DNA of 63,997 nt, filler included, from Sphacelaria rigidula (GCA_964200075.2; 3 parts of 3 records of this genome joined end to end with filler, not necessarily neighbours in it); one strand, 5' to 3'. Shown: positions 2,221 to 63,572, counted from the first letter of the whole stretch. Made by a program: numbers and translations. Notes: generated by a model not told the origin, from the sequence alone.

Positions 2221-2354
2221 GATTCCCGTGGACTGGTCTGTTCGTGTTCGTTTTTCTTTCGTTGCTTTTCTCTGTTTTTTTGCTCTGTTAGATCTCTCAT
2301 TTCTCTTCCATCGCCCCACTTTATTGAGTTTCTTCTAGCGTGTATTCTCCGGGG

Positions 2355-9430: not shown

Positions 9431-9911
9431 TCTGTTGACAAGAGGGACTGCTTCTGCTGACAACCGGGTATGAGGAAACACACTAAAACCACATTGTCGT
9501 GTGGTTCTCGGTTTATTTTCATGGGTCCTTTGCTTCCTTAGCTTGCGAATACCTACTTTACTTTCATGGCTACTTTTGTTTGCAGAGATCCACCGCCAGG
9601 CGGGATCGCACATGCGTACCCTTTCCATCGTCAGAGCTCACCAAGAGCTGCAGTCGTGTACTTTAGGTCTACAGCTGTGTTGTTCGTCATACAGGTGTCT
9701 GTGTGTTGTGCGGTGATGCGAAGCACGGGGCTGTCAATGAACCCCTTGTTCTCCTGGTTTCACCGGCTTTCTATTCTGTTCAATACCCGCAAAACTATCG
9801 GTCAAATAATCAGTCATTTTTGTTCACTTGATGATATCTTCCCCTTGTCCCAAAAACCCAACCAACCAAACAACCTCACCCTAAAGCGTACACTCTCTTA
9901 GTCATGCAAGA

Positions 9912-10261
9912 TTGTCTTCCCATCCATTCTGGACGCCGGTCTAGACCTTTCGGTATATGTTGGCGCATCAGGCGGGGTCAAACAGGAGAAAGGTCAACAG
10001 AGGAGTTTCTATTTTTTGTTTCTAATGTCCCACCTTCCTGCTGTGGTGCTTGCTTTTCTTTTTCATCGCGAGAAGGGTTCAGCACTCCCTCCCTTTCCTT
10101 CGTCGACAGTCACGTGGAATTTGTGTACCCTCGACATAATCGCTCTCCACCACTGTTGGGCATGGTGTGAGAAAAAATCCCAGATCGCTCCGAGATTTGA
10201 ACCCACGACCCAACCGTCAGAAGGTTTCGTGGTTACCAACTGAGCCACCGGGGTGACCGGC
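9912..10261 (-). mobile_element. tRNA-derived SINE, family 1
   Basis: Minus-strand head GCCGGTCACCCCGGTGGCTCAGTTGG (A box)...GGTTCAAATCT (B box). Homologous copy at 52485-52811. Confidence 0.8.
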
Positions 10262-12149
10262 TCTTTACGTGTGGTATACAGCAACACATATCGACCGATA
10301 GTATCGAATGTATCGATACCTATATACAACCCCATCGATTATCGTTTGATGTGGAGTGAATTTTCCGCATCCTACGGCAAATATGTGCTCGGTATGACAA
10401 CCAACCTCCAAAGAAGACCAACAACAATTGTGTTCGTTACAAAATCTTTCGTCGCGAACAGATTTTCGAATTCGTTCCCGCAATTTTTAATAAATATCGG
10501 TTCGCGAAAAGGGTAACATGCGTGAACACAGCAACCGCTGGGGCACACGCAACAGTACACTGTGACACGCAACCCAACCCGACACAATCGAACATTGAAC
10601 TGAGAACCCCTCTGACCCCATGAATAAAAAACACACAGCTCGAGCCGTAGCTGTTGATCAGCTGAGCACGCTACGTTTGACTTTGGTCAAGTCCGTTCAG
10701 GATCCGATGAAAAACAACTTTTTGTGCCAAACCGGTGTCGGAAATAACCACACATTGCCGGTCAGCGACTGTGCGTTTTCGGTTGAAAACGTTCGCTCGC
10801 GGCCAACTTTCCTTCAACACTGAACAGATTTCCGTCCAAGACTGACGTGTGTGGATGAACAAGAGGTAGCGATGGAGATAATGCACGTGAGCAGGAAGCG
10901 TCTGCGCATCTTTGTTCGGGGCTTGGTACATCGGTGCGTAGGGGTCGTCTTTCTTTGTCGCGTCCTTCCTGTACCGCACGAGATGTTGAACAAACCACCA
11001 CTGCTAGAACCGCCGCATTTACATACGTGTGTGCAGATCTTGCTTGCATTGGACGAAAAATATGATTTCGATAAGACTGAAAGCGGCCGTGGCAGGCACA
11101 ACGCACATTTAGTGAACTGGTTTCATGTGTTGAGACACGGCCCTGTCGAAATGGTTACTCTACTCAGGGAATACTGTGGTGATGTGGCTGTACGGTAGGG
11201 TTGAGTCTGCAAGATGAGTGCTGACTACTGTTGTTCGTCGTCCTTCCTTGTTATCCAGTTTCTCCCGATTTTTTCCTTCGCGGAGTGTTTTCATTCTCTT
11301 CTCATGGGTACGTCTCTTTTAACTGCGGCTGGATTCGCTGCGGATCAGTTAATCTGCGACAACTCATTATCAAGCGGCCAGTCGCGTGTCAATTCCTGCT
11401 TGCCACTGCGGGGGGGAAGGGGTGCACGTTACGTCTCGTTACATGGCGTAAGCGCGAGCGGCGAGAAAAATGTCCCAAACCCCATACCTTGTCCTGGCTG
11501 GTGTGTAGATACCACGAGTGGCGCTCGCAGCGGTGCGACTCCAGCATACTGCCACGAGAGCGAGGAAGAAATGCCGTAACAGCATGGTCTCCAATAGCGA
11601 AGTGTTGTTCAGTACAAACAGGAGTGTTGGATATCCACCTGCAGGTACAACGAGGCACCTACCGTTTGTTCAAGGCCCAACCGGCACCTCTCTGTTGGAA
11701 CATGATATATATTCAGTGTTCGACCTGAATTAGTGTCACGTTCTTTATCTTCCCCACAATAATGCATGGTTGGGTCAGCAAACTGTTTGTCAAACACGTG
11801 GTTACAATACTACCGTTATAAATCTATGTAAAATTCCCATTGGTATGTATTTCATTAACTGGGGCTCAACTCTGGCCACCACAGCGCATGGAATGGCGAC
11901 GGATGTTTGCAAAAAGTTGTTACAAGAGCACAGGATAATTACTGTACAAACGCATTGTCATTTCCCACATTGGCATCCAAACGCGACAGCCACCAAGCCA
12001 CGGCCAGCCACGGAAGCCACACAGGCCACTGCGCCAGCAGTAGGGTGATGGATGCTCACAGTCGCGCCGCACGAGATGATAGCGGCAACCAGCATATGAT
12101 ATGCCGAGAAGAGTAAGCCCCTTGCCGTCGTCGACACCTGCTTCAGCAC

Positions 12150-13050
12150 ACGAAAGGGGGGGCAGCCCCAAACGTTCGAGGGAACGAAGTTGCCCACGAC
12201 GAGATACCGGCTCGAGTATGTCGTCATGCTTCAACAGACCCCCGCCCCGTGCGAATCGCAGGTGTACTGTACACCAAGCAGCGAGGCACTACTCTAATCA
12301 CTCAACTGCACATGTACCGTTCCGATCAATGATCTGAATCGCCACCACTCGTAGAAAACACGACCGAACGACTGGAAGCAAACGCAGACAGTTGGACCGT
12401 AGACAACTTGCAAATCGATTCGTCCAACTGGAGGTGGCCCGCGCCATCGCGGCCCACCTCTACTCCGTAGACCACCGTACAACAACATCCATGGATGATA
12501 GCTTGTGTTACCTCCTCTACTGACACTGCGTGTGTACCGAGCGAGCGGGACAATCCCACCAACACCGTGATACGCGCGCCAACTTGGCTGGTGTGTGACT
12601 GCACCACTCACGCGCAGATCGATACCGCATGGCAGGTGGGGCATGACGCGCGGAAAGCCGTGGAGGTCGCCCTAACCGATGCACCACTCCACAAAGCTAC
12701 GAGTAGAGCTGTGTATGGGTCGGATTTTCGAACATCAATATCAATATACAGAAGAGGTTGACAACCCCAACGCCGGCAGTACATCGGAATTTCGCGATAT
12801 TTTGGCGATGTAGCGGAACAGCTCGAGAGGGCGTAAGCCGCCGCCCCCGACTGATGAGGGGAACTCGTCCGAGGCGCAGCGTGAGGCAGGAAAAGTCTTC
12901 GTGCTGGTTCCATCTCTCTTCGAAACCGAACCCATAGTTGTGCACCGAAAACGGAAAATACTTCCGTACATGGAAAGGCAGACTTCTGCCCAGAAAAGTG
13001 CTGAAAAAAAAGTACGTCGCACAGGGTGCCGCTTGCTGAGGACACTTTTT
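12150..13050 (-). mobile_element. Heavily decayed non-LTR retroelement C-terminus (restriction-like endonuclease type)
   Basis: Fragments in several frames (WSGASVRA, LQLDESICKLST, FQSFGR, VSRRG) recall the RLE-type endonuclease end (ESFGR motif). Recognised from memory only. Confidence 0.4.
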
Positions 13051-21713: not shown

Positions 21714-21812
21714 NNNNNNNNNNNNNNNNNNNNNNNNNNNNNNNNNNNNNNNNNNNNTTAATTAATTAANNNNNNNNNNNNNNNNNNNNNNNNNNNNNNN
21801 NNNNNNNNNNNN
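21714..21812. other. Artificial contig linker
   Basis: N-run, TTAATTAATTAA (stops in all six frames), N-run. Confidence 0.97.
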
Positions 21813-22697
21813 NGGGGGTGTGAGGCGAGCCGGGTAGGGAGCGGGGGGAAAGCGGGGGGGGGGAGGGGGGGGAGGGGGGGGGGGGGGGGGGGGGGGGAGG
21901 ATACGGCCACGTAGACGGGGGGAAATCCTACAACTGTGTGCCAACTATTCATCACTTCTCTTTTTCACAAATATGGGGATGGATATAGGAGACTGGAGCC
22001 GCCTAGCCATGTAAAGCAAGACGGTTGACGTATATTTCGATGACATGCGAAGCGAAACAGCGCTTGGCAGCAGCCACCCTTTCCTACAGGAATCGCGGTG
22101 ACAGCAACATATCTTGACATTATCTGCCCCTTCCCCCCGATCAAAGCCCCTTCACACTTCACTGTCGCATATTCTGGATATTTGATATGAGAACAATATT
22201 CGGTTCGCGTTGTGAGGTGGTGTCTCCACTTCTAGGCGGTTATATATGTGCTTGTACTATATCGACTCGAAGTGGGACCTTCACTGCAATCTTGCTGCAG
22301 CCGCGCAACACTGTGTGGCCCTATCGCAATGGTTGATTCAATTAATCAACTGTCGCGTGTTGACTGATCCGCTACGACTACCACCCGTGGTCATAAGATA
22401 GACGTACTTGTGTTGATTGAATAGAAACACTCCATGAAGGTTGACACCCCAAATCGCAGCACGAAATATCCAAATCATACTGTGTATACTACACGTTGGC
22501 GTGCCGACAGCCCAAGGGCATCAAAACAAGCATGCCAACTCAACAGAATAATCTTCAACCCTCCGGCAACGCCCGAAATATTCACATCGCTCATGTGCAC
22601 ATCACGCCAGAACGTACTGTCATGATGCAACAACAGGAAACGAACAGTAAAAGAGAACTATCCAGAGCACGAAACCACATCACATCCATGATATTTG

Positions 22698-43526: not shown

Positions 43527-43626
43527 NNNNNNNNNNNNNNNNNNNNNNNNNNNNNNNNNNNNNNNNNNNNTTAATTAATTAANNNNNNNNNNNNNNNNNN
43601 NNNNNNNNNNNNNNNNNNNNNNNNNN
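43527..43626. other. Artificial contig linker
   Basis: Same N/TTAATTAATTAA/N structure. Confidence 0.97.
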
Positions 43627-46717: not shown

Positions 46718-49700
46718 CTACCGGCGGCCTCTTCCTCGTCCCTTCCCCCTGCCTCCGCCATTTTTACCTCCGAACCCTCTCCCGCTCCTGCCACCGCGCC
46801 CGCCCCTGCCCCCACCATGGGGACCATGTCTATCGCGATCTCTCCCTCGCCCCCCAGATGAAACCCCACCACGACCACGGCCCGGATAGGCTGGGGAAGG
46901 GCCCCTACCTCGGAAGGGAACCGCACCACTGCCCCTTCCACCTCTGACTTTGCCGTTGCCATCCCCTCGTCCTCGACCTGGTCGGCCACCGTTGGGAACA
47001 GTGTCATTTTTTTTCTTCTTCTCCGGTGGTCCTTCGCTGGACACTTCATTTTGGTCTTCCTCCTCACCGTCACTCGTCACTTCTTTCACCTTGTGGCAGA
47101 CAAGCGAATAAGAGCAAGAGAGGCATTAGGCGGAAAGAGTAAAATAATGCGGACAGCTACCACGCGGTGATGCTCGAGCGGTTAAGCGGAATATCTACAC
47201 CATGGCTGAATATCAAAACAGCACGATTCACAACTATGCAAGGGTGCAACCACTCCATTTAGTGAAACAGTCGCGACTTCGGGAGCACTGGTGTTCGGAG
47301 CCTTTGGCTCGACATCACCGCACACGCAGCTGTTGATATGTCGCTGAAACGAAGTCTCACCGTTGCCCCCACCGCTTGACGGGCTTCCGTTCTTTCCTTG
47401 TCGAACTTTCTCGCTTCCCTCTTTGCGCGCTTGCGCTTGGTTTTCGCGTCTTCATCTTCGCTACCACTGCAGGTTGCCGACAAGGGGACAGCGTGAAGGA
47501 AGTTTCGTGTTGAAAAGTAATATACGAGCTGGGCCCACCAACGGTGATTTTTGAATGTCTTGGTTGTCCGGCTGTGGTGAATTCGAGGGCTTGGGCGCTA
47601 AAAATTTCCGTTATCCTCGACATGCATAATATTTCTCAGGTTGCCAAGAAAAAAGTAGGAAAAGAAGGGTGAAGCAATATAATTTTTCGGGAAAAGATGG
47701 ACACGGTGCACACCCAGAAATGATGACACTCATAAAATTGGGCCTAGCCAGGCACTTTTGGTGGGACACCGCAAGACCCCGGTGGTCGAACTGACACAGG
47801 AGCCTTTTTGTACCCAGGTCAAGACTTCGAATCCCGACGCGACCATTTTCCCATGATCTCGCAGATATTTTTCGGAGCATAGTTCGGCATTCTCCCTCTC
47901 TTCGATCACGGTGTCCCTTTCGTAGACTTCATTTTTAATCAAGAACAATATCTTTCTAGGTAAAAATAAATGCTTTTTCGTACGAGTTCCCGTCCGAAAC
48001 ATGTGCGAAACGATCTTTTTACCCTCAGTGTGGCTTTGAATCTTCAGTTGGGAGCAATAATCCTCCCTCTTCTGGTAATATACGACAGTCGACTCGGAGG
48101 TCATCTCCCATGACGAAGCTGTTAACGAGCATGATGCCCTCTTGCAGGACTAACAGTGCGCTTTTGCCTGCACATATCGGGTGCTCGTGTGCCTGTGCGG
48201 CGCAACATTCTATCGCAATTCCACCGGATTTTGAGAAACGAAACGTCTCACGACACGCAGTCACGCAACATAAGAAGTACCCGTTACTCAATGCAGTACA
48301 ATAACGCCATCGTCAAAACTACGCCAACCAAGCAACGACGGAGCCGTGCGTCACCAGGTCTGCAGTTCACAGCGATGTGTTCAAGTTGGGCCGATTTGGA
48401 ACCTGAACAATTTGCAGTGTAACGTGCGTATCTGGGATTCACGGCTGCCCTTGCTCATGTATATATTTATTGGCAAGGAACCAACAGCTGGGCACTTGCA
48501 ATTCCTTCGCCACGTACGGTGCAAACTACCGGGAGTGGTCATACAGGCACTTTGCGGTCGCTGATGACTCGTGTGCACAACACTTGCACCAAATTATCAG
48601 TTTTCATCGCTGGTCGCGGCGCACGTCGCACAGGCAGAACTGTCTTCCAAACTTGTACCTGTCTTCCACATCCATCGCAGAGCTCGCGCCGTCTTCGTTC
48701 GCCTCTGGTGCGCCCTTGTCTGGCACGCCCAGTGTTGTCACCGTTCTCCTCTCTCCAGGAGCAAACTTCTTGAGCTTCGCTACGAAGAAGCCGTCCATAT
48801 TGTGGACATGTGGGTAAAACCTTCGCGTGAGGCTCATGGTAGGATGGAACCTCCTCTCCTGGAAGCGACTGAATCCCGGACGCCCTGTTGGATGCGAGTG
48901 AAGAGCAGAATTCACGTGTAAGAAAAAATCCTAACGGCAACTTACTTACTCGACCTTCCTTGATTCAACATGTGAAACAACCCGTCATCTGAGTGGCCAT
49001 ATTCGCTAACTTTCAAGTACAAAATCCATAGGGTGTCAACTTCGCCAGCAATCCGACATGAAATCAAGTAAGCTTTTCAATCATAGAAAGATTACATCAT
49101 TGTCGTTAGAAATTGAAAAAAATTGTACTGTAGCATAAGAAAGACGAGATATCCTCCCATGTACTTGGAGGATACACCGTCGCTTCTCAGAACGATCACC
49201 CCCAACGAGAAATGTGGAAAGTGGGCGATGTTCACTTTTTTACAAAGTCTCACAGTAAATCATGTCTTGATAATGCTGAAGACTTCAGGTTCGGGTGCTT
49301 TGCTTCGGAGCAATAATGGCTTCACGACTCACCAAAGTCTAGCCCGGTGGGGATGAGCTTGACATAACGCTTGTTGAGGATGTACTCGATCACCTGCAGG
49401 AGACGAGGCGAGAAGCGAGGGGAGCGGTCAGAATAGGCAGAAACAGCATACATCAGCATTTGCAGTGACAGATCTACGAAAACGTTTCACGAAAACAGCA
49501 CATTTGAACGGCGTTTTTGTTGGTCGCTGTTATACTCCCCCTACCTCATAAGCAGGGTGGATAAAAGGCAGCTCCTTCAATGTGGGTTTCAATACTTCGA
49601 GAGCTCATGTTCCAAAAACAATATTCGCTCATGAAAACACACGCAGCAAGAGCAAAAGTTTCCTTGAGAGACCCACCGCCCCGGGTTCGGAACACTAGAC

Positions 49701-52700
49701 TGTTGCTCGAGTCGTTCATAAATGATCGGTCCCACATGATTAATCATTTTGAGAAAAATCAGTTCGACATCAAACCATAAGTCACCCTTTCGGCGTGAGG
49801 CTAGGGTTAGATGGGTCCGCCGACATACAATAAAATATGTCAAGAAAACGCCCATTCCCATTGTAGATCAGCCGCGAATTTACATCCATACGAGGTTAGC
49901 GCCAGAGCCAACGCGGGTGCCCTGCGGAGTTGTTAAGTTGTTTGATAGGTGTGTAGGCGTGGTGGTTTTCGGGAGCGCTTTGGTGCTACGAACCCGTTTG
50001 TTGGGTCAACGACCAGCCCGAGGCGTTCAAGAGAAATTCAGGCTTTTATCGAATGGACGTCTAAATAAAGCATGTTTCCTTGCCACGCAAAAACAAGGCT
50101 TAAAAACATTATCGCGGTGTGCAAACATGCTGACAAACTGTCCCTACAGAATTGTCATAACTCCACTCGTAGCAACGAAAACACGGCAACCACAAAAATA
50201 GCAACGTGTAGTTCATCTTTCAAGGCTGAGCCGCTTCCAAGTCGTTCCAGCAAGATTTTGCTATGGCGGTAATTCCAATTTTGAAGCAATTTCATCACAG
50301 ATTCCGTGTCTGTTCTCACACATAAAGACACATTCCACTTTGATTTTGATACCAACAGGCACAACAGAGGCGCACGTCGAGAACGTCTCATATACCGTTA
50401 GTCGATAACGAGCGACGGCACACCGCCGAGATGGACTTACACGTCTCTGACATACTGCAGGTTTTCAGACGAGCATAAGAAGACGCCAAAGTAACTTGCG
50501 CCAAAGGTTTGTCACGAGGACGTCGACAACAGCGTCCCCGTAAAGCACGAATGAAAAAGGCACCCTGTAGTAGAAACGAAATTGAATCCATCAATGTGGC
50601 ATGCCGAAAGCGGGGAAAAATGGCTTTCCTCTCTTGGCGACAAACTAAAAAACATGAAGATGACGTGGTGCTGGCATGAGACTACCAAGAGTAGACCATT
50701 CATCTCCTCAGGCTTAGCCGCTTCGAAGTCGTGTCAGCAGGGCTTCGACTCAGACGGTAATTCCAGTCTTGAAGCAATTCTTCACGGGAGAGGCCCTACG
50801 TAACACTCGGCACAAACGCTACCTTGATGTGTTGTTCCTCACGCATCAGACGGAGGCCCTCATAAGGAAGTCGACAAGGGGATTGTCAACATGGTTTCAA
50901 CTCAGAAAAACATGTAGATATAACCTGAGTCTAATCACGGGGCACGTTCACACACGGAGCAGTCGTGATACGTAATGATTGCCTCATATTACGCCATCAA
51001 CTTAGCGGGAGATACGTCTCACGTTCATCTCTAGTCATTACCAACAACTAGGGAACAAGTGAGGCTGAACGACACGCGGTCACCGTGGTACCGACAGTCG
51101 TCGTACTACTTAAACCAAAGGGGTTGTTGTGTTCACAAAACCACACGGTATCGCTGCGGTCGAGTAAAAAGCCCTCATAAGGAAGTCGACAAGGGTATTG
51201 TCAGCATGAAGTTGGCTCAGACATAAAAAATGTAGATATAACCTGAGTCTAATCATCGGGCGTTCATCCACTCGAGTGCTATAAAATTGCAATTTCTTCA
51301 AGGACGGGTTACACGAAGGCTCATCAATGCGCATGCCTATGAATACAGCTAGCTCTCCCCTCAGACTTAGCCGCTTCGAGCTTGTTTCAGCAATGTATTA
51401 GCTCAGACGGTAATTCCAGTGTTGAAGCAATTCTTCATTGGAGAGAGGGAGTAGAATTCACCGTGAGAAGCGCTAGGATGTGCTTGCTACGCGAATCAAA
51501 GAGAGCCAATTGACGTACCTATTTTTGAGGTCGAGAGGACAGATGTTCTCCCGTAAAGGAACGTCCACGCGGGGTCGAGAAACGAAACAGTAGAGTCGAG
51601 AAAAAATGTGCATAACGTGACTTGGACGACACGAGAGCAATAACGCTCCGGAGTAGGCCAACCCGGATCATTGTCATTCATGAGTGTCGCGCAGCGAAGA
51701 AATGAAGGCAGTATAATCACCGGATTCCTCGCTGTCAACAAACGAAAGGCATGTCGTACGTCAAAGCTCATCATGCCGCGAGACATCCGTAGGGTTCCAT
51801 GTTGCCGCGTGGCCGTGTAGCGGTGTTTATTGCGAGAATCTCCTCAGACTTAGCCGCTTCAAAGTTGTTTCAGCACGAGTTTGCTCAGACGGTAATTCCA
51901 GTCTTGAAGCAATTCCTCACCGGAGATGTCTCACTACACCCAATTGCATTCAACAAAACGAATGAAGACGGTCAACACACTGCGAATCCACGGCAATTTG
52001 TGGTGGTAACAACTGACACTGGGATGAAGATGGGATCCGATCGCGCTCTGGCCAAGTCGAGACATGTGGTCTCTTCGGGATTGAAGCCAGTCTTGTTCTA
52101 GTAAGACGGGTTTCGGACAGTAAAGGCCGACTAGGAACAGGTAACAAAATTGCCGAGGTCTCCAACAACGCTGCGCCTTATTTGCAGACTAGGGGTGCGA
52201 AAAACGGTGTACCGGTCAAGAACGCCTCCAAAACAAATGTAAAGAAACCCCAGTTTCGAATTGTGAACACGCTTGTGACACAAGATAGAGCCACGGACAA
52301 TTTCCATATAAAAGCTTGGGAAGATATTCTTGTGTCGGTGCGATGCCGGAGTGGTTCCAATAACCACCACCAACACGAGGGGACGACTCGTACTGGAGCC
52401 GTCTGAGAGCACCTTGATTACCCTCCTCTCCCAATAGGGGCCCCACATGGCCGTCCATGGTGCAGGATGTGTGTGTGTGTGTGTTGTCGTCCCATCTCTT
52501 TTGGGCGTCAGTCTACCCTTTCAGGATATGTGGGCGCATCAGCCGGGGTTACACAGGAGGAAGGTCAACACGGGAGCTTTTCTTTTTCAGTTGTTTCTTG
52601 TGCTCCACCGTCCTCCTGCGGTGCTTTCATCGCGAGAGGGGTTCGGCAGGCCCTTCCCCTCGTCGGCCGTTGAGTCGAATTTTGCGTACCCACGGCTCTC

Positions 52701-55700
52701 CACTGTTGTGCATGGTGTAAGAAATAATCCCAGATCGCTCCGGGAATCGAACCCCGCAACTCAATCATCAGAAGGTTACCAAGTTACCAACCGAGCCAAC
52801 GGGGCGACCGGATGCGGAAATTCTTCACCAAAATTGGAAATACAAAACCGCACACGCGCCTGCATGACCAAACCGCTTTCCCCGGCCATTCAATTTCTTC
52901 AGCTATACTACAGACAATAACCGTGTTTGGAACAATATTTGAAATTATATTTGTGATGGATAGATGCTCGAGCGTCGATGACCGTCACGAAGTTTTTTAA
53001 ATGCCGACGTGCAAAAAAAACGCGGATTCACCTGTCGTCTATTCGCGGTCATGGACGCGACTACTTGGCAGGAGAAGTCAAGCGTCACACAAACAAGTGA
53101 GGCTGAACGACACGCGGTCACCGTGGTACCGACAGTCGTCGTACTACTTAAACCAAAGGGGTTGTTGTGTTCACAAAACCACACGGTATCGCTGCGGTCG
53201 AGTAAAAAGCCCTCATAAGGAAGTCGACAAGGGTATTGTCAGCATGAAGTTGGCTCAGACATAAAAAATGTAGATATAACCTGAGTCTAATCATCGGGCG
53301 TTCATCCACTCGAGTGCTACAAAATTGCAATTTCTTCGAGGACGGGTCACACAAAGGCTTATCAATGCGCATGCCTATGGATACAGCTAGCTCTCCCCTC
53401 AGACTTAGCCGCTTCGAGCTTGTTTCAGCAATGTATTAGCTCAGACGGTAATTCCAGTGTTGAAGCAATTCTTCATTGGAGGGAGTAGAATTCACCGTGA
53501 GAAGCGCTAGGATGTGCTTGCTACACGAATCAAAGAGAGCCAATTGACGTACCTATTTTTGAAGTCGAGAGGACAGATGTTCTCCCGTAAAGGAACGTCC
53601 ACACAGGGTCGAGAAACGAAACGGTGGAATCGAGAAAAAGATTTGCACGTCGATCGAAGACCAAAGGGAAGAGGGTAGCTCACGCTAGGGATCTTTGCAA
53701 TTTACCGGTGTCGCGCAGCGAAGAAATGAAGATTTCTACCCTGGAGTTCAGTCATCAAGCACTTCGCTGTGTCAACAAAGGGCATGTTATACGCCAAAAT
53801 CTCAGCATGCCAAGGAAAATCGGCAGATTTTGATGTTGCCGTGTTGCCGTGTAGCCGTGTGAATCACGAGGGTCTCCTCAGACTTAGCCGCTTCAAAGTT
53901 ATTTCAGCATAAGTTTGCTTAGACGGTAATTCCAGTCTTGAAGCAATTCCTCACCGGAGAATTTCCCCTGCACCGAATCGCATCTGAAAACGCCAAGTAC
54001 AACAACCGTGGTCAACACTCTGCAAACCTGCAGTGCTTTGTAGTAGAGACAACGTACAGTTGTACGAAGATAATACCTACTTGTGCTAGGCTCTCAACGC
54101 AATTTCTGCCACACACGAGTTGGGCCGTGAACGGTCCATATCAATCTTTATGGGACGGATCCCCAACTAACACAGGGTTGATCATGTGTTCGTGAATGAA
54201 TGAAAGATAAGTCAGCGAGCGACCTACCCAATCACGGCGAGGCGACGAGTATCGACGAGTGTGAATGCCACTGCAAGGATCGTGTGAGGACCCCATCCCC
54301 AGCCCAGATAAACCTCCCCAGGTTTTTTAATTCAGGGTGATCGCAGCTTGGTGTTTTACTTGGATGCAGTACTCGTTCATCGTTTCCGAGTTTCTCGGGC
54401 GGGTTTTCGGGTCGCAATTCTGTAACAAAACGTAGTAGTTACACCAAAACACGGTGGAACGGAAAAAAACAGGAAGGAGTGTACATACCCATGTGTACAT
54501 TTTTACGAGGCGCGCAACCCAGGTGAGCCGTGGAAAGACAAGGAGCTACGGTCATGAATTCTGCTCGTCCCTCTGCCGACGACTTGCAGTGTGCAATCAA
54601 TATTTATGTAGTTGGCGGGGATGAAGAAGCATATAGACGGTTGATCTCGGCAGCTGAGAATTGCCCAGAATGTGCAAGGGAGTGTGCAGCGGCAGCTGCT
54701 GCTGCAGTCGGAGAGGTGTACCCACTGCACCATACTGTACTGTATGCATGCGCGCCGCAACGCTGATACCCTTCAAAGGAAATTCCCGGTGTGGGCATTC
54801 CGTTGGGCAAAGGGTAACGATCGATACCATCAGCTTCGCCCATGTTGCCGCATGTCTCGAGAAATGGCGCACATGAGGTACTATACTACAATCAAAATAC
54901 TACGAGCAAAGACAGTCAAGTGCACCATATCTGGGTATCGCGTCCAAGTTTTTTAAAAAAGTGCTTTGAAATTTCTGGTGGAGAATCGCTAGGGCACGAG
55001 AAAAACAGAGAAATATCAAATTTCTTCATTTTCTTCATTTCTTGGTCCTTTCAGGGGAGTTCCAAGAAGAATGGACAATGCTCCCGGACTTCATTTTGGT
55101 TATTCAGCTCAATTGTTAGATTTGAGATTCGGAACTCATCATGGAGAACCGCGAAGGCATGCCGAAGAAAAAAATAAGCCTCCACTTTTTTCTTGACAGG
55201 TATGAGCGCTGAGGGGAGTTTCAACTAAGAATGAACGATGCTCTCGGGGCTCATTTCAGTTCATCACATCAGTTTGTAGAAATGAGAATCGAAACCCTTC
55301 ACGGAGAATTGCGGAGGCATGTCGATGAATAAAAAATACATCTTCACTTTTTTTGGAGAGATGTGGACGTTTGGACGAAGAGATGTTACAATACTCGAAC
55401 GTCCCACACATATAAATGAAAACACAAAGTCGAATTTTCCCGTGTTTTTGCCTCACCTCAACTTTGGAAGTGGGACTTTCAAATTTGGTACAGAGATTGC
55501 GTAGGGCATCAAAGGATCGATCGGGATGGTATTTGTTTTCGTGAATCAACGGAAATTCTCCAGTTTCTTCGTATTGATTATTGCTGTCACGTCACGGAAA
55601 ATACATATATATCACCGTCCCGATCAGTGTTTTTCATCATGCCCTGCTTTTTCTTTTCACCAACTTTAAAAGTTCAACTCTCAAAATTTAGTCAAGACGG

Positions 55701-58700
55701 GGGTCTGCAAACCACAAATTGGTGTCTTGGCTGGCTCAGCTCATACTCATGTTGCAAGATTTCTAGTGCACAAGCATCGAATCGTGGCCCTCATCAGGAA
55801 GTCGACAAGGGTATTGTCAACAGTTATTACCTCAGTGGTAAAGTTGTAGATATAACCTGGACGTAATCATCGGACCACTTCGATTCCGCTTCTTGTGCCA
55901 TCAAATTTCTACTGATAACGTAATTCAAAACTTAGGAGTAAGGGGTGTCCTCAGGCTTAACCGCTTCGAACTTGTTTCAGCAGGGATTTTGTCTCAGACG
56001 GTAATTCCAGTCTTGAAGCAATTCCTCACAGGAGACCCCTTTATGACACACTTCTATTCGATTAAATAGACATGACAAGTTGTGAACACACGGTGATCGA
56101 CAAGTGTTCGATGGGTTGAAACGGCGCGGATGAAGTTACCACACGTTGTAATATCACTGCCGTGCTATAATAGTAGAATCCATGCTGAGTACTTGGAAGT
56201 GGTCTCCTCAGGCTTAGCCGCTTCGAATTTGTTTCAGCAGGGCTTTGTCTCAGACGGTAATTCCAGTCTTGAAGCAAATCCTCATTGGAGAGCCACGCCG
56301 CGCCCCGATTGTGTATGGTCCGACTGTCGCCATTACAGTGGAGAGAAAGGGGGTTCGATTCCCGATGCGTTGGCTTCTCCTTCGTTAAAGCGTGAGAACG
56401 TGAGGAAGCAAAATATTCGACTGGGTTTGTGTGACGTGAGTTGACGCGGTGCGGGAGTGCTGTTAGTCATGACCCAATCCGCGATAACAAAATGAAAGGC
56501 GCGCACCGGGAGAAAGGGGTTGATCCGTTGAGAATGTTAGACCACGGACTCGTCCCGAGGGAGGGGTTCGAAGTGTAAGGGAAAAAAAAAAAGAAGGGCC
56601 TGACTCCGTTCGATGGAGCAGGTCCTCAGTACTCCTTCGAAGTGATGACTTCTTCGGGTTCATATCAACATGGGTTGGCTTCATCTATATCTCCAACCAG
56701 CACAGCTACTTTCTCGCGTAGTTAATCGTGCTACACTCTGTACAAACGCTTCTCGACCAAAAAGGCGTGTGATGACGAGAAAGTTTCGGACGTGAAAAAC
56801 AAGCGACGGACAATCCACTCGACGAGTTTCGTTTTCGAACAGTATACAGCGTTCTCCACCACAGCCCGCGTTGAGTTGTTTCGGCACGGCTTCAGCTCAG
56901 AGGGTCTATCTGTCGTGCAATATGTTTCATATTGTAGTCTCAATCCAACTGCACAAGGTACCAGTACTGCAATGTGCAGGTGTTCTAGGAGAGGAAGGTC
57001 ACTCCAGGCCCCGAACACGCTTCTTTCGCAATCCGAACTATACACAAAATTTTCAATAATCCGTGTCTCCTCAGGCGTATCCACTTCCAAGTTGTGTCAG
57101 CACGACTTCGGCTTAGACGGTAATTCCAGTCTTGGAGCATTTCCTCACAGGAGAACACCCGAGGTGCAACCAACTTTTTCCAGTAAATCTTGACTCTCAC
57201 TGCTGTCGAGCGTCTACCTCAGCGCCATCAGGTTGGGCTGCCATCAGTGTCCAAAGGGTGGCTACAACTTCCATGCTCTACCACTATATAGTCAAGAACA
57301 GAGCGTTCTATTTTCTCTTTGCATTGCCTCGTCCATGTCCATCGCGCCCTTGGCTTTGGTACTCTATCGCTCAGCGTCTTCATCTCACAAACCAAGATCG
57401 ATAAAAAACTGGACCATCGTGCTGTGCGTGCCATCACATCGCCTGTACGTCTCGAATGCACACGCGGAATAATCGGTACCACCACACCACAACAACCGAG
57501 CCAAATGGGCAACGGATGCACGGGTCTCACCTGCTCGTTCTCCGCAACGCTAACGGAGCATGTCGAGTACACGATCACCCCGCCGGTGGAGCTCTTTGTA
57601 CTCACAGCGTCAACCGCCGCGCACAGCAGTTCCTTTTGCAGATGTGCTGTTCGCTGAATGTCCTTCACCGTGCGCTGAATTTTTACAGACTGGTCGCGTG
57701 ATATAACACCCAGGCCTGCACACAACAGGGCAACCGAGCACACCATTTGCATTTTAGAGGCATCCTGGTAAGCTACACACTAGTTCATGATGTTGGAGAT
57801 ATCAGCACGACAGCGCCTTCAGCTATTCGAGTGTTAGAAAGTGATTAATTTAGATCAAATCACAGTAACCATAGAACCGATGAGCAAAGACGAACCACCC
57901 CGTGGCTGAGCATGCGAGAACAAAGATCGTGACACCGAGTCGAAGACTATTCACGGTTCGGACGAATCATCGCCGGTTTGAGCCACCAATTTCACGATTT
58001 TTCAAACCTGAATGCTCGAAAGCAAAAACAAAGTTGACCGCTGATCAAGGGGGACTCCACGCAATTTTCATGACACTTCACGTGCCTGAACTGGGCGTGC
58101 CTGTTTTGTTTTGTTTTCCCTACACTTCGAACCCCTTCCCTTCCTTGGGAGGCGTCCGTGGTCTCGAGGGATCGACCCTTTTCTCCTCCGAAGTGCCTCC
58201 CATTTTGATCTCGCAGATTTGATCAGCACCGCCCTAATGCGTCAACTCACGTCTCACAAACCCAGTCAACTACTTTTGTTTACTCACGTTTTCACGCTCC
58301 TCACGGTGGGAATCAGATATCACAATGAAAACCCAACGCACCGGGAATCGAACCCCCGTTCTCTCCGCCCTAATGGCCACAGTCGGACCATTACCCCATC
58401 GGGGCGTGGCAGTAAACGCTAAAAACGAACCTCAAGGGTTGATGCATACGTCACGAATCAACCAGGCTAAAATCAAGTAATTTCCGAACGAATCATCTAT
58501 TCGTCCCACCCTTGCAACTATCAACATAATTCAACAACTACGCATTAGATTGCACAACTACACGATACAAGCCAACTCCCGACCACCGATTGAGGCAGTT
58601 ACCCGTGACGCCGCGCCTCACCGCGACGTCGTATAAAAGAATCTCATACCTGAACACGGCGCGTCGAGCAGCACGCGGTCAATGCCTTTGAATGGGATCT

Positions 58701-61700
58701 TCCGCCCGTCGTGGCAACAAACCAACGCGTTCCGTACACCAAGGCGATGCAAGTTCGCCACCGTTGCTCTTTGCCGCTGTGATCGTCACGAGATGTTCAA
58801 TGTTGACAGACGAAGTAAAAGGCTGAGTTAGATCAGTGCATGACTGCATGACGCCACTTATTGGTTATATAAATGCTGTAGATTGACAGCAATCCTTTAG
58901 TCGCCCATATGTTTCCATATCCGGAAGCGGCATCATCCTCACTTGACAGAAATGGCATCTGTCACGTGTCCAACGAAGGGGACACATCGACCATCACAGC
59001 TGAAAATGATTCATCACTGCCCGGCAAGTACGTGATCCAAGACGCGGATGGCTGTCACGAGACCAAGTGAGGCCAAGACTCCATCGCCCACCAAACACTG
59101 CACAGCATTACCGCTAGACAGTACGGTGATGTCACCTCATCGCTACGATAGCGTGTTCGGAACAAACCTGTGGGCGAAGATCATTTGCGATGACCACCCC
59201 CGTATTCCGCATCAGTTGCGAAATGTACGTGGTCTTGCCCCCGGGAGCGGCCGACATGTCTAGCACGCGTTCTCCCTGGAACAACCAAAGAGGGGGATAG
59301 AAGAAAAGCGGTGGGGGTATCATCAGCATGGCATTTTTGGCCCCATTCAATTCCAGAAAAACATACACAAGGAACACTCAGTTTGCTCGAACGAACGCCA
59401 CGTAACTGCATCTTGCGACGCCACCGTCATTCAAGTATGACATAAGCGGGTGAATGGACGTACAGAGCTCTCTTGGATAAAAAGTATGTATAGCGATCAT
59501 CCTGTCCTACCGCGCATTTGTTAGCGAAGGTGTCTAGCGAAACGGAACATACCTGTTGTGGTGCCAACGCCATGACCGGGCACATAGATGCAGCGGACTG
59601 TAGCATGTAGTGTCCCGCGAGGTACTCGGGTGTTGCGCCAATCGGAATTTGGGACTCGGTTATCTTCAGGCCGACCTTGGACCACTTCGCCACTGGTTCG
59701 AGGCTGACCCCCCTTTTTATCAATGCCTGGGCACAGCAAATGCAGTAAGAATGACAATGAAAAATAACGACAATGCTCTCCATTTTCATCATATGCTCTT
59801 CGTTTCCCTCCTCTTCCGCTTTCCGCTTCCCTTGTCCCTCGCGGTGAGGCCTTTTCATCTCAGGCTATTCGGCAAAGACGATCACTTCATCACTTTTCTT
59901 GAGTAGTCACGCACACTGGTGAGCGCGATTTCCACAGGCAAACGGGCCGACCGAAATTTTGACTACATTTCATCATCATGTCCGACACAACAAGGGAACA
60001 CGATGAATATTGTATTTCACCTACATGAGCAGATAAGCACATACTACTAGTTGCCGCACACTTCACCTCTGCCAGATCCTTTCGTCTCGTCTTGAGTGTA
60101 TTGGCACGAATCACGAGGGGCCGAGGTTTGTCGCTGGCTTCGAGGAACTCGACGGTTTCCGCAGGAGAGAACATCTGCACCGTCATCAAAAGTATGCAAG
60201 AAAATACAGGCACAAAAAGACAAAATGCCATGCAACTGTGAGGAGGTAGTCTACTGTGCCGTTGGACACGAACTGTTCTTCACGGCTCGGATCGTAAATA
60301 TTTGACGACAGCGAAGTGTTCTGTCCGATAGCGACGCAACGGCAAGGCCAGGGCAGCACCATCTGCAGTGTAGCAGTCTGTTTGCCACAACAGTGCGGAG
60401 TCAGGACGATGCATTGTAGTCGAACCGAGTTGCTCATCTGAAAACCCACACACACACCTCCCACAAATCGCAGAAGCTCGCACCTCCACGAAAAGCTGAC
60501 TCCCTCATAATTTAATAAAGCTCGCCATCAAGACAAAAATCGAACATTACATCGCACTCCTGTGCAGCAACGCTTGCACACACACGCATCCCCCCAATTC
60601 CCGATCTCGGTTGCAAGTGCATATTAGCGCATCACCATATATCAAGGTTAACACCATTATCTCACAAGTGAAAGCAGCGGCTACTCACGACGAGGAACAT
60701 GTCGACGAGCTCTCTGAGGTAGCCGTAGTATTCCTTGAGATCCTTCGCTAACCGTTCAACGTAATCACCGCGGGATAGCGCAGGATCTCGTCGTTCCTGC
60801 TCAAGAGAAGGGAAGGACAGGACATACAGACGCTGTGAATTTCAAGGCATACTCAACAAACTCGTAACAGAAACAATCTCCCGATCTCGATGGAATATAT
60901 GTTTACTTTGGACGAGAGGACACAATCGTCTCGGTAAATGGTATGCCACTGATCCAAGACATCGTTCTAGTGCTTGCTTGCGAACGCTCCAGCAAATGTG
61001 AACGAAAGGTACCGCTCTTCTCCATCGCAAAAGGATATCTGTGAGGGATGAAGAGAGCCCAGCTTGAAGCTGAAAAATTCTTACTACTCCCTCATCAAAA
61101 AGTGAAGAATTTTTTCACCATGAGATCATCCGCGCGTCAGACTTTCGTGTTTCCTCGTCTTATAGGTGGTGGGGGGCGGGTCGGGGGTTTGGACAGGTCT
61201 CGCGCAAGTAATTTCAGTGACTTCCACCCGTGGATCATTCTCAGATCAAGTGTAGTTGATTCTAGTAGCTGATTTTAGTACGGTCAGCCAATAAAAGATT
61301 TCGGAATAGGCTGATTTCGGACACAGGGGTTTCCAAGCCTGCATTTTACAGGGGCACTCGAAGGGGGACGTGAAAATGCAAAACCGCTCCCACCTGGAAA
61401 TCACCCAGCACTTCCACGACGGACTCAATTCTTTCCTTGAGCACCTGGGGGGGCACGACCTCCTCACCCCCTTCTCCTTCTCCCCTTTCACCCATATCTT
61501 CCCCACTCTCCCCGTCGCCCGCAGCTGGCACAAGACCCAGCGCATCTCTACTCTCCAGAACGTCTCTTCGGAGACCTTCTTTGGCCTCCTCGAGTGCCTC
61601 AGCTTCCATCCTTGCTGATTTTTTTTCCAGCGCTCTCGATTGACGTTCGACCTGCGTATGGTCAAGTTTGGGTTGCCGACATGTCGTAATGCCAAAATAA

Positions 61701-63139
61701 AACGTGTCAAAGTGGTGCATCGAAACTGACGGGACACTCTTGCTGGAGGGCATGTGATGATGCGCGCCACATCTCGCGTAGGGTGCAGCACGTGCTCAAG
61801 ATAGACCTGCCCGCATGATATTATATCAAACACTTCAACGGGTTGTCGAAAAACCCAGTGCGAGCACAGAACAGCGGGTCAGAGGAAAAGGCATATGCTT
61901 CGATCAGCACTTTTGTCCAGATAGCAGTGAATAAACAAACATTAATAGCCTACTCCTGCCCGATGAGTGGATAGGGAAGTGACCGTTGACTACACCAACC
62001 AGTATTGCTCTCATCAACACAACCAGTTAATCCCAAGCTCCCATGCACAGCTGTACCTATACCGTTAGACATGAAATAGCTACAAAGATACACCGTGTGT
62101 ATATATCGAGAGTTCAGTACCGCGCCGTACCTTCCCACTACTGACTGTAGTAAGACTCAACACTGTACGTGAAAAAAGGCAGAGGCACAAAAAAACACTC
62201 GCACTGCATCAGGTGAGGCGGAGCGCCACCAGCCCCTCCTCACCCCCCCCTCCCCCTTCTTCCCCTTACCTGCATCAATCCGTGGCCATTGTGCTCATCC
62301 CGCTCACCATCTTCACTACCGTCATCAGAGTCATCGCTGTCTTCGCTGTCTCCTACACCACCCCCCCCTCCGAGCCACCCTGACCCTTCATCCTCATCTT
62401 CGCTCTCCATTCCCGGAAACGCTTCCTTAAAAGACTGTAGGTCTTGTTCACTCTCCTCGCTATCCGATTCCTCTGCATCATCATCTTCGTCATTAGCGTC
62501 ATCAGCCTCTTCCTCTCCCCCGGTCCGCCCCTTGCTCCTCGTGGTGGTGGAGCCGGCCGTGGCCGCAGTCTCGACCGGTTTCAAATCTAGTAACGGTGCT
62601 TCTGCCTCCACCATTTCTCCCTGATCCCCCTGGGTCATCTCGTCCGCTCCATTGCCCGCGTTCGAACCGTTCCCTCCTTCGTCCTCTTGGTCGTCCGATG
62701 ATATGTCATCCTCAGCGCTGCCCGTAGCGGCGTCAGCGCGCGAAGACGCGCCAGTGGAGCGCCTGGACGCTGGCCTCTTCCTGGCTGTTCGGCCATTCGA
62801 AGTCGTCGGTTCTTCGCTGGAGACACGTTTCGAAGCAGGGGCACCAGCGACGGCTTTCGATGCGTCAGCCCGACCCGCCCCTTGACCTGAACCTTTTCGT
62901 ATGGTCGGCACGCCATCCTTGGATGGCGATTGCTTCTTGGCAGGTTTACGCTTGGTGCTGCTACGAGGCACCCCTGTTGATGTCTCATTTTTTGCTACCT
63001 CAACCTGCTTCTTATCTGTACTGATCCCATTCCTCTTGGTTGCTGATACCGCCGGAGTAGACGATAATCGGGTACTGCTGGCGGCACGGCTACCTTTAGC
63101 CTTGCCCTGCGGGGTTGATGATTTCCGCTTCATGGGCAT
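46718..63139 (-). CDS. NOP2: NOP2/NSUN1-type 25S/28S rRNA (cytosine-C5)-methyltransferase, 12 exons, 900 aa
   Basis: Exons with GT-AG boundaries and consistent phases: 63139-62270, 61651-61394, 60796-60689, 60174-60067, 59726-59553, 59275-59168, 58776-58650, 57715-57531, 49393-49333, 48884-48659, 47466-47361, 47089-46718 (2703 nt). Family motifs: [55 protein letters not shown] (SAM-binding motif I), [11 protein letters not shown] (motif IV), VYSTCS (motif VI catalytic Cys), [20 protein letters not shown]. Basic/acidic N-terminus and RGG-rich C-terminus. Confidence 0.95.
47550..48420. repeat. Dispersed ~870-bp repeat, copy 2 (NOP2 intron 10)
   Basis: Inverted homolog of 18235-19110. Confidence 0.75.
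50215..50302 (-). ncRNA. Box C/D snoRNA family A copy 1 (diverged)
   Basis: Minus strand: stem ATCT, box C GTGATGA, guide TTGGAATTACCG, degenerate D', D box TTGA, stem AGAT. Confidence 0.6.
50508..50595 (-). pseudogene. Degenerate family B snoRNA copy
   Basis: Plus strand TCACGAGGACGTCGACAA resembles family B TCATAAGGAAGTCGACAA. The remainder is strongly decayed. Confidence 0.35.
50703..50791 (-). ncRNA. Box C/D snoRNA family A copy 2 (snR77/SNORD65-like, 18S Um)
   Basis: Terminal stem TCTCC/GGAGA, box C GTGAAGA, guide CTGGAATTACCG before D' CTGA, C' CTGCTGA, second guide GAAGCGGCTAAG before D CTGA. Confidence 0.85.
50856..50943 (-). ncRNA. Box C/D snoRNA family B copy 1 (LSU rRNA guide)
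   Basis: Stem GCCC/GGGC, box C GTGATTA, TATCTACAT element, D' CTGA, C' ATGTTGA, guide TTGTCGACTTCCT, D-like ATGA. Confidence 0.75.
51171..51261 (-). ncRNA. Box C/D snoRNA family B copy 2
   Basis: Stem GCCC/GGGC, box C ATGATTA, D' CTGA, C' ATGCTGA, guide TTGTCGACTTCCT, ATGA. Confidence 0.75.
51353..51445 (-). ncRNA. Box C/D snoRNA family A copy 3
   Basis: Same layout; box C ATGAAGA; both guides intact. Confidence 0.85.
51838..51927 (-). ncRNA. Box C/D snoRNA family A copy 4
   Basis: Minus strand reads ATCTCCG-GTGAGGA-ATTGCTTCAAGA-CTGGAATTACCGT-CTGA-GCAAACTC-GTGCTGA-AACAACTTT-GAAGCGGCTAAGT-CTGA-GGAGAT. Confidence 0.88.
52467..52811 (-). mobile_element. tRNA-derived SINE, family 1, inside the snoRNA array
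   Basis: Head with TGGCTCGGTTGG and GGTTCGATTCC boxes, body matching 9912-10261, (CA)n tail. Confidence 0.8.
53209..53299 (-). ncRNA. Box C/D snoRNA family B copy 3
   Basis: Identical to copy 2 by eye; lies in the duplicated block. Confidence 0.75.
53391..53482 (-). ncRNA. Box C/D snoRNA family A copy 5
   Basis: Nearly identical to copy 3; lies in the duplicated block. Confidence 0.85.
53873..53960 (-). ncRNA. Box C/D snoRNA family A copy 6
   Basis: Paralog of copy 4; D' reads CTAA; guides intact. Confidence 0.82.
55784..55878 (-). ncRNA. Box C/D snoRNA family B copy 4
   Basis: Stem GTGGTCC/GGGCCAC, box C ATGATTA, guide TTGTCGACTTCCT, ATGA. Confidence 0.72.
55941..56040 (-). ncRNA. Box C/D snoRNA family A copy 7
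   Basis: Extended terminal stem (plus strand AGGGGTGTCCT...AGGAGACCCCT), box C GTGAGGA, 18S guide intact. Confidence 0.85.
56203..56291 (-). ncRNA. Box C/D snoRNA family A copy 8
   Basis: Box C ATGAGGA; both guides and both CTGA boxes intact. Confidence 0.85.
56297..56592 (+). mobile_element. tRNA-derived SINE, family 2
   Basis: GCCGCGCCCCGATTGTGTATGG...GGTTCGATTCCCGATGCG; ends in a poly(A) run. Confidence 0.8.
57066..57154 (-). ncRNA. Box C/D snoRNA family A copy 9
   Basis: Stem TCTCCT/AGGAGA, box C GTGAGGA, 18S guide intact, D' CTAA, D-side guide diverged. Confidence 0.75.
58104..58410 (-). mobile_element. tRNA-derived SINE, family 2
   Basis: Homologous to 36375-36675 over its whole length. 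Confidence 0.8.
58929..59021 (-). ncRNA. Candidate single-copy box C/D snoRNA in NOP2 intron 6
   Basis: Minus strand GGCA-GTGATGA...ATGA-TGCC: perfect box C, 4-bp terminal stem and an internal hairpin GTGTCC/GGACAC. TCATTTTCAG can pair with LSU CUGAAAAUGG. Confidence 0.5.
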
Positions 63140-63402
63140 GGTTGGAGTAGTGCTCACCGCACTCACTGAGCTTACTGATAACGTAGGGCGCCCGCGCACT
63201 GAAACTGTAGCCACTCAGGGGCAATCTAGCATGACTATCCCAACCAAAGTTAAGGGACATATTTGGATTATGACCGAAATCCAAGTCGTATACTTGACGT
63301 GGGCAGAACCAAGTCCTCACCTGGCCCGCCCACGGTGGGCCATGTACAATAGTGAAGGGTACAGTGAATTCCACACGGGTACCGGAGTGCGTGTAAAAAT
63401 TC

Positions 63403-63572
63403 CACGCCTTGGACAACATATTGTCAATAGATGCAATAGACGATAAGTGTACTGCATAAGGTATAGGCCTATAGCAACTATTGCCGGCCGACAATAATCG
63501 CAATAGGCCTATACTCCATGCAGTACGTTTCTTGTCTATTGCAACTATTGACCATATGTTGTCCAAGGTGTG
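63403..63572. repeat. 170-bp near-perfect foldback upstream of NOP2
   Basis: CCTTGGACAACATATTGTCAATAG...GTATAGGCCTAT pairs with ATAGGCCTATAC...CTATTGACCATATGTTGTCCAAGG. Confidence 0.85.

Follow-up and report, generated by a model that had tools for sequence, protein, structure and literature searches.

Intron 8 of the NOP2 gene of the brown alga Sphacelaria rigidula probably holds an intronic cluster of box C/D small nucleolar RNA (snoRNA) genes that has grown by local tandem duplication, with birth and death of individual copies. The gene was analysed in a 63,997-nt stretch of DNA (hereafter the window) from assembly GCA_964200075.2, in which three parts of three records of the genome are joined with filler. 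The cluster contains units of two kinds, both on the minus strand: nine copies of unit A (~90 nt, from 50212-50300 to 57066-57155) and four copies of unit B (~91 nt). A direct-repeat search, blastn and a profile search agree on both sets. The blastn and nhmmer profile searches were run over the full length of the window and found no A-like or B-like sequence outside positions 50212-57155.

All 13 units, as well as the relic of a tenth A, lie on the sense strand of the host gene and inside a single intron whose splice borders are confirmed by RNA. At least two snoRNA genes on the host's strand of one spliceosomal intron define such a cluster; intron 8 contains 13 units. The order in the transcript is A9, relic, A8, A7, B4, A6, A5, B3, A4, A3, B2, B1, A2, A1, which corresponds to A,A,B,B,A,A,B,A,A,B,A,A,(relic),A on the plus strand. 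An initial annotation of this DNA had described nine copies of A, and all nine were recovered on the minus strand by blastn and the profile search. Its order of units is also reproduced, except for a bracketed B between A1 and A2. This fifth B was not found at E<=10, and the four to five copies of B proposed earlier come down to four. No further snoRNAs were found in the other NOP2 introns or flanks (positions 40000-63997, E<=1).

The identity of the host gene was predicted correctly. PF01189, the RsmB/F methyltransferase family, is matched by four of seven exon pieces (E 6e-17 to 5.5e-4); one of the seven matches the RsmF/B ferredoxin-like domain, and two match nothing. For both exon pieces that were searched against solved chains, the top four chains are the Nop2 proteins of yeast, human, S. 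pombe and Chaetomium (E 1e-24 to 3e-14). Since PF01189 and Nop2 chains are the best matches, the host gene is a NOP2 orthologue. RNA contigs of 3469 and 3123 nt (runs X6 and X7) align to 12 minus-strand blocks and splice all 11 introns. The splice joints mark both runs as RNA; each of the 11 joints reads CT..AC on the plus strand, each intron is GT..AG, and the joined exons give an uninterrupted open reading frame (ORF). The same contigs give exactly the borders that had been proposed for intron 8; the remaining ten introns are 271-1192 nt long. The array is also not peculiar to one assembly, since parts of it are contained in a second DNA source from another study (X4), which is ~2% diverged over the flanking exons. 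At position 53478, X4 has four extra letters in the 5' stem of A5, resembling A3; these may be genuine variation, or short-read contigs may have merged the two duplicate blocks.

We propose that the array is transcribed within the NOP2 pre-mRNA. The 5' and 3' ends of each unit would form a terminal stem plus a C/D kink-turn, and each kink-turn would recruit the core proteins Snu13, Nop56, Nop58 and fibrillarin. The spacers would then be cut by an endonuclease and the products trimmed by exonucleases to the protected ends, which would free RNAs of ~85-92 nt. The spacer cuts would be needed because exonucleases that start from the two ends of the debranched intron could free the outermost units only. 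For unit A, the predicted role of the D' guide is 2'-O-methylation of 18S rRNA at the uridine that is the counterpart of yeast U578. In unit B, a 14-nt guide beside the D box could direct methylation of the large subunit (LSU) ribosomal RNA (rRNA) at the first A after GGG, and the 5' element may provide accessory pairing upstream, in the snR62/SNORD34 region. Release of intronic and polycistronic snoRNA clusters by an endonuclease and exonucleases is established (PMC10557570, PMC7671301, PMC2780460).

The array could instead be one or more independent transcription units inside the intron, driven by a promoter of their own, as are most polycistronic snoRNA clusters in plants, and not dependent on NOP2. 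In animals, many intronic snoRNAs sit close to the 3' splice site; here, the first unit begins 375 nt downstream of the 5' splice site, and 818 nt separate the end of the last unit from the 3' splice site. Plant snoRNA clusters can either have an RNA polymerase II promoter of their own or be intronic (PMC7671301). However, the 13 units and the relic share the host strand, as expected if the host transcript is needed. Low-depth RNA contigs inside intron 8 tell neither strand nor origin. We consider independent transcription unlikely and retain processing from the NOP2 intron as the preferred explanation.

Judged by its anatomy and guide, unit A is predicted to be a box C/D snoRNA of the snR77/SNORD65/snoZ7/snoR77Y kind. 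Copies A2-A9 have a common layout: a 5-nt stem, the C box RUGA(A/G)GA, a spacer, the 13-nt element CUGGAAUUACCGU, the D' box CUGA, a linker of 10-11 nt, the C' box UGCUGA, a spacer, the D-side element GAAGCGGCUAAG, the D box CUGA and the 3' half of the stem. The terminal stem is 5 bp long in all eight of these copies, with 92.7% of stem cells paired. Both C/D boxes and a terminal stem are present in A2-A9 and B1-B4, with variant boxes and not the exact consensus of RUGAUGA for C and CUGA for D. The resemblance of the units to box C/D snoRNA genes on the NOP2 sense strand, with antisense elements, is thereby supported. The complete set of boxes that had been ascribed to each intact unit does not extend to A1, which has aberrant D', D and C' boxes, or to A6 and A9, in which D' is CUAA.

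The Rfam search was run in two ways, with the default gathering thresholds and with E-value reporting. Full-length matches to snoR77Y or snoZ7/snoR77, on the minus strand only, are obtained for eight of the nine A copies (cmscan; 28.7-41.1 bits, E 2.7e-5 to 0.04); A1 has only a weak match to SNORD65. Unit A has the same length, box order and target (18S U578, yeast numbering) as the families of Rfam clan CL00057, which are snR77, SNORD65, snoZ7/snoR77 and snoR77Y, and it shares the D' guide UGGAAUUACCGU followed by CUGA with the plant consensus (cmscan). It differs from them by sub-cut-off scores, by A or G at C-box position 5 and by a distinct D-side element. The guide and the sub-threshold matches are in line with the family assignment of the initial annotation. 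An additional internal helix of A, formed by GCUUCAAG with CUUCGAAGC, has 91.7% of its cells paired, yet a two-sided change is seen in just one of eight pairs, and only in the duplicate copies A3 and A5; this helix was dropped as unsupported. Minimum free energy folds of the A copies disagree with each other, with z-scores from -0.6 to -1.3.

Potential targets were tested on 36 eukaryotic rDNA pieces that contaminate bacterial and archaeal assemblies and were collected by a pattern scan. Eight of them contain full or large small subunit (SSU), 5.8S and LSU rRNA genes annotated by Rfam. The D' guide of A forms 13 contiguous pairs (12 Watson-Crick and one G-U) with GCGGTAATTCCAG in 5/5 SSU rRNAs, and the U facing guide position 5 is SSU nucleotide 575-586. 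Like the members of CL00057, unit A thus has a D' guide aimed at the counterpart of yeast U578 in 18S rRNA. In a box-anchored control, one of 300 shuffled A guides pairs equally well. Yeast Um578 is given as the snR77 site in the table of PMC5344495. Stretches of 9-11 nt complementary to 18S positions ~599-615, some 25 nt downstream of the A target, are also present in A4 and A6 after C' (51860-51870 and 53895-53905) and in B4 before D' (55835-55845); they may be due to chance, since only some copies have them.

A metagenome scan for a C box, the 18S guide of A and a D' box returned at least 120 stretches. Among the stretches listed, different lineages have different D-side guides; those of one type are complementary to 18S 555-566 in 5/5 SSU rRNAs, and those of another type to 15 nt of LSU in 2/2 full LSU rRNAs. 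The D-side element of A is absent among the 120 listed environmental relatives, and a metagenome scan that required both A elements gave no matches. Eight of the 120 loci listed have at least two snR77-type copies, with a maximum of four identical copies spaced 3397 nt. The latter belong to another eukaryote and form a tandem 3.4-kb unit with exact spacing at positions 2123-12353 of a brine metagenome contig (L099). No NOP2 was found by tblastn beside the snR77-type genes of the listed 120 loci (583,392 nt, many loci being short), and these loci also have no B-like sequence.

Comparison of the units with their surroundings points to selection on the RNAs. In 34 of the 36 pairs of A copies, mean identity is 81% for the units vs 55% and 54% for the 100 nt on either side; in five of the six pairs of B copies, it is 82% vs 56% and 54%. 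The random level, taken from pieces of the same intron, is 54% identity (sd 4). The excluded pairs (A3/A5, A4/A6 and B2/B3) result from a recent duplication of a B-A-A block, in which the spacers are 82-98% identical. The direct-repeat search detects this block as repeat families at 98%, 96%, 84% and 82% identity with a spacing of 2024-2038. Invariant columns in A2-A9 make up 13/13 of the 18S guide, 6/6 of the C' box, 4/4 of the D box, 9/13 of the D-side element and 2/11 of the D'-C' linker. Units at 81% identity with flanks at the random level, and invariant guides and boxes, argue for selection on the units, as had been suggested; conservation spread evenly over units and spacers is not seen, and flanks are random outside the duplicated block. 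The description of the spacers as mostly unrelated is accurate across the array and fails for the B-A-A block.

A further explanation is that the array is mostly dead weight, with few working copies and the rest neutral duplicates in decay, and that no high dosage has been selected. A1 has no proper D', D and C' boxes and is probably decaying, the tenth A is reduced to a relic, and D' is changed in A6 and A9. The three-unit block was duplicated recently, with spacers up to 98% identical; therefore at least three of the 13 units are too young for testing by selection. On the other hand, 34 of the 36 A pairs have flanks no more alike than random sequence, yet the guide, C' and D are invariant in A2-A9. 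Such invariance would hardly arise unless most copies were under purifying selection, or under conversion together with selection, and we regard mere dead weight as quite improbable. The picture suggested by the alignments is that of birth and death by local duplication, with purifying selection on most copies, and the array does not appear to be a uniform nine-fold dosage. The proposal of the initial annotation that a high-dosage cassette couples the guides to transcription of NOP2 is at most partly supported. A dispersed mobile element, or snoRNA-derived retrocopies accumulated in the intron, is scarcely credible: the intron is rich in very high-copy repeats (word depth 1e5 to 7e5), but dispersal in random orientation is not seen, the units having one orientation and no copies elsewhere in the 64-kb window, no A-rich tails were seen beside the units, and X1 word depth is 70.9-105.6 in unit bins vs 64.4-85 in exons, a weak indication because word depth is not a copy number.

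The second unit of the cluster, B, is built of blocks that are conserved in the alignment of its four copies: GCCC, (G)AUGAUUA, CAGGUUAUAUCUACA, CUGAG and UG(C/U)UGACAAUACCCUUGUCGACUUCCU(U/G)AUGAGGGC. We read them as a putative stem GCCC/GGGC, C box RUGAUUA, D' box CUGA, C' box UGYUGA and D box AUGA. All four copies have U-A instead of the usual contact between G at C-box position 6 and C at D-box position 1. The AUGA of B is placed by cmscan at the D-box position of several C/D models. Both box variants, C UGAUUA and D AUGA, are carried by the Rfam snR41 consensus (RF01218); the guides of snR41 differ from those of B, and yeast snR41 serves 18S A541 and G1126 (PMC5344495). The 14 nt adjoining AUGA pair (12 Watson-Crick and two G-U) with LSU AGGGAAGTCGGCAA in 5/5 LSU rRNAs, and one of 300 shuffles equals this guide in the box-anchored control. 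The LSU pairing stretch of the guide is AGGGAAGUCGGCAA, and position 5 faces the first A after GGG. Both units thus have an antisense element of at least 10 nt that ends at a D or D' box with the target at position 5 (13 nt at D' in A, 14 nt at D in B). In B4, a T-to-G change makes a CUGA that overlaps D, 3 nt upstream; if this CUGA is the working box, the target would be the U of GAAGUCGG.

The 5' element of B, UAUCUACAUU, pairs over 9-10 nt with AAUGUAGAUA, directly 5' of the LSU stretch of the guide, and the two elements cover 24 contiguous nt in LSU sequences of the L033 type. We take AAUGUAGAUA to contain the U of yeast Um1888 (snR62) and human Um2824 (SNORD34), the placement of yeast U1888 being in part our assumption. 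In the LSU context, the G of CUUCGGG lies at +39 relative to the U of AAUG, which fits Gm2863, and +24 presumably fits Cm2848, given the human letters that we assume. Yeast numbering counted from the LSU 5' end in the fetched loci puts the U at 1868-1890, which is ambiguous. The site names Um1888 and Um2824 follow PMC8677024 and PMC5344495. The 5' element ends 8 nt (B1), 11 nt (B2/B3) or 10 nt (B4) from D', out of the methylating register. Yeast snR62 is listed among the snoRNAs complementary to regions that flank their own methylation site (PMC3116282). Because the 5' element is out of register and snR62 has such flanking complementarity, we assign the 5' element of B most likely to accessory pairing and the D-side element to the guide. 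The previous assignment of B to U34/snR62 stands in part: the 5' element is complementary to the presumed snR62/SNORD34 region, but it is out of register, SNORD34 scores 13.3 bits vs a gathering score of 38 (E 5.5, with no match for B4), and the canonical, box-adjacent guide aims 12 nt downstream, at a neighbouring nucleotide.

Several observations weigh against the cluster as described here. At the Rfam gathering thresholds, the window has no matches. No copy of A reaches the gathering score of its family (41.1 bits at best vs 52 for snoR77Y, 38.1 vs 43 for snoZ7), and B has no significant Rfam match, the best being snR41 with 21.5 bits and E 0.13. The C box of A has A or G at position 5, where U is usual, and D' is defective in three A copies (A1, A6 and A9), next to the sole assignable guide. 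The guide of B includes two G-U pairs. Its predicted site is absent from the yeast 25S sites listed for 1450-2142 in PMC5344495, where Um1888 stands alone, and the names Am2836 and Um2839 are absent from the human paper searched (PMC8677024). All targets were tested on the rRNAs of other eukaryotes. When complementarity is not anchored to boxes, 35 of 200 whole-unit shuffles of A8 reach 13 nt over 11.6 kb of rRNA, and 26 of 200 shuffles of B2 reach the observed length; unanchored complementarity is therefore not significant, and only the box-anchored test was used. The D-side element of A forms a 9-nt pairing that is matched by 154 of 300 shuffles, that is, at the level of chance, and its complement, CUUAGCCGCUUC, does not recur in 14 rRNA pieces from five rDNA loci. 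For these two reasons we call this element an orphan. Finally, RNA contigs within intron 8 have a depth of 1-4 pieces only, and contigs cannot show short RNAs or their ends.

Table. The host gene, intron 8 and the units of the array, in transcript order (positions in the window)
Feature	Coordinates	Strand	Structure and state	Match or support
NOP2 orthologue (25S/28S rRNA m5C (5-methylcytosine) methyltransferase), coding region	46718-63139	minus	12 exons, 900-aa spliced ORF	
Intron 8	49394-57530	minus	8137 nt; GTGAGA...CTGCAG	joint 49389->57527, cut +4
A9	57066-57155	minus	first unit in transcript; C GUGAGGA, D' CUAA (variant), D CUGA; 18S guide intact, D-guide region diverged	Rfam snoR77Y 29.1 bits, E 0.032
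A relic (tenth A, decayed)	~56860-56915	minus	alignable only from D' to spacer after C'; guide, C box and D box gone	nhmmer 56871-56906, E 0.0014
A8	56203-56292	minus	intact; C AUGAGGA, D' CUGA, C' UGCUGA, D CUGA; stem UCUCC/GGAGA	Rfam snoR77Y 41.1 bits, E 2.7e-5
A7	55947-56036	minus	boxes intact; terminal stem extended, one mismatch	Rfam 28.7 bits, E 0.04
B4	55786-55876	minus	C AUGAUUA, D' CUGA, C' UGUUGA, D AUGA; stem GGUCC/GGGCC	blastn, alignment, profile search
A6	53873-53961	minus	A4 copy, 94% identical; D' CUAA	
A5	53394-53483	minus	A3 copy, 99% identical; intact	Rfam snoZ7 38.1 bits, E 4.3e-4
B3	53210-53300	minus	identical to B2	
A4	51838-51927	minus	intact	Rfam snoR77Y 39 bits, E 9.6e-5
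A3	51356-51445	minus	intact	Rfam snoZ7 38.1 bits
B2	51172-51262	minus	C AUGAUUA, D' CUGA, C' UGCUGA, D AUGA; stem GCCC/GGGC	alignment, Rfam search, profile search
B1	50857-50947	minus	C GUGAUUA, D AUGA; further CUGA 10 nt 3'	fold z -3.2
A2	50703-50792	minus	intact	Rfam snoR77Y 33.6 bits, E 0.0022
A1	50212-50300	minus	last unit; most diverged, 69-75% identity to others; C GUGAUGA, D' CAUA, C' UGCUGG, D UUGA	SNORD65 18.1 bits, E 3.9
B3-A5-A6 block	53092-53983		other copy of recent duplication	
B2-A3-A4 block	51054-51950		one copy of recent duplication	

High-copy repeats make up a good part of the 8.1-kb intron. Very high-copy dispersed repeats in intron 8 are found at 52424-53007 (core ~52466-52600), 54670-54721, 56417-56560 and 57267-57386, and further high-copy repeats at 58178-58500 (intron 7), 47752-48919 and 62936-63500. 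Their word depth in DNA runs is 1e3 to 7e5 vs ~65-75 for single-copy sequence, and they have many loose ends and joints elsewhere. Two related repeat copies, recognised by similar ORF translations and high depth, lie at 56330-56600 in intron 8 (between A8 and the relic) and at 58070-58430 in intron 7. Beside the repeat of highest depth, a minus-strand stretch at ~52700-52850 resembles a transfer RNA (tRNA), with the T-arm-like GGTTCGATTCC; ARAGORN calls no tRNA there and none in the whole window, and the stretch is possibly a tRNA-derived short interspersed element. The NOP2 protein, 900 aa long vs 618 aa in yeast and 812 aa in human among the matched chains, begins with a long extension that is Lys/Ser-rich and acidic and ends in a tail rich in Arg-Gly (minus strand, 46718-47089 and 62270-63139). 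Masked or withheld stretches, in all four runs of 44 N, lie at 21714-21813 and 43527-43626, as two pairs 12 nt apart. All 36 rDNA pieces used for target prediction (L001-L036) are eukaryotic contamination of bacterial or archaeal assemblies. One contig among them, filed under a bacterial metagenome-assembled genome, contains a group I intron in a eukaryotic LSU rRNA gene (L022 6653-6995, the same as L025 4418-4760).

The mammalian SNORD115 and SNORD116 loci resemble the array in having dozens of tandem box C/D paralogues in one host transcript, but there the RNAs are orphans, and every copy sits in a separate intron of a repeated exon-intron unit. In the array described here, many copies are housed together in a single intron of a ribosome-biogenesis gene that codes for a protein, and they have a canonical rRNA guide. 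The yeast SNR72-SNR78 cluster includes snR77 and is expressed as one precursor that is cut by RNase III (Rnt1) and trimmed by Rat1 (PMC10557570, PMC6171561). Unlike the array, it comprises seven different snoRNAs, is independently transcribed and non-intronic, and has no paralogue amplification. Chlamydomonas and plant snoRNAs are mainly found in clusters that yield multiple isoforms (PMC7671301), and plant snoRNA families have many spatially clustered paralogues (PMC5122169). The closest arrangements are the intronic clusters of rice, Drosophila and Chlamydomonas, in which one intron likewise contains several snoRNAs on the host strand, including isoforms that arose by local duplication, and release likewise needs cuts between the units (PMC2780460, PMC7671301, PMC5122169). 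In contrast to them, the array has 9+4 copies of two families only, in an 8.1-kb intron that also carries high-copy repeats. Given these multi-isoform clusters, the novelty suggested by the initial annotation was overstated: the arrangement is already known, and the array is large in copy number and located in an apt host gene. Among the papers listed by a literature search on snoRNAs in brown algae and Ectocarpus, nothing on snoRNA organisation beyond automated prediction was found; in one of them, snoRNA loci are predicted by CDseeker and ACAseeker only to filter reads (PMC4513859).

In three respects the locus could go beyond an ordinary cluster, although we consider this doubtful. First, unit B could be a remodelled guide of the snR62/U34 type that clamps 24 contiguous nt in LSU domain IV with its two antisense elements, and through its U-A-compensated C/D pair it could methylate a nearby adenosine that carries no modification in yeast or human. 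Second, the D-side element of A, which is invariant, could have a target that is specific to the lineage and possibly lies outside rRNA. Third, selection could have favoured the amplification in NOP2 as a feed-forward module. In human, NOP2 is reported to bind both core proteins of box C/D snoRNPs and assembly factors, and to aid snoRNP assembly (PMC10557570). The function of the host gene is therefore near to that of the RNAs it carries; the relevance of this role here is speculation. If the feed-forward module is real, each NOP2 transcript would yield an assembly helper and up to 13 client RNAs.

The array does not change our knowledge of how snoRNAs work. It offers a clean example of the expansion of a snoRNA family by local duplication within a host intron, with recent duplicates, copies that have diverged under constraint, copies whose boxes are damaged and a relic side by side. 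Two rRNA methylations are predicted and can be tested, and the paralogue-specific linkers allow measurement of dosage and differential stability. The array is also a lead into snoRNA organisation in this lineage.

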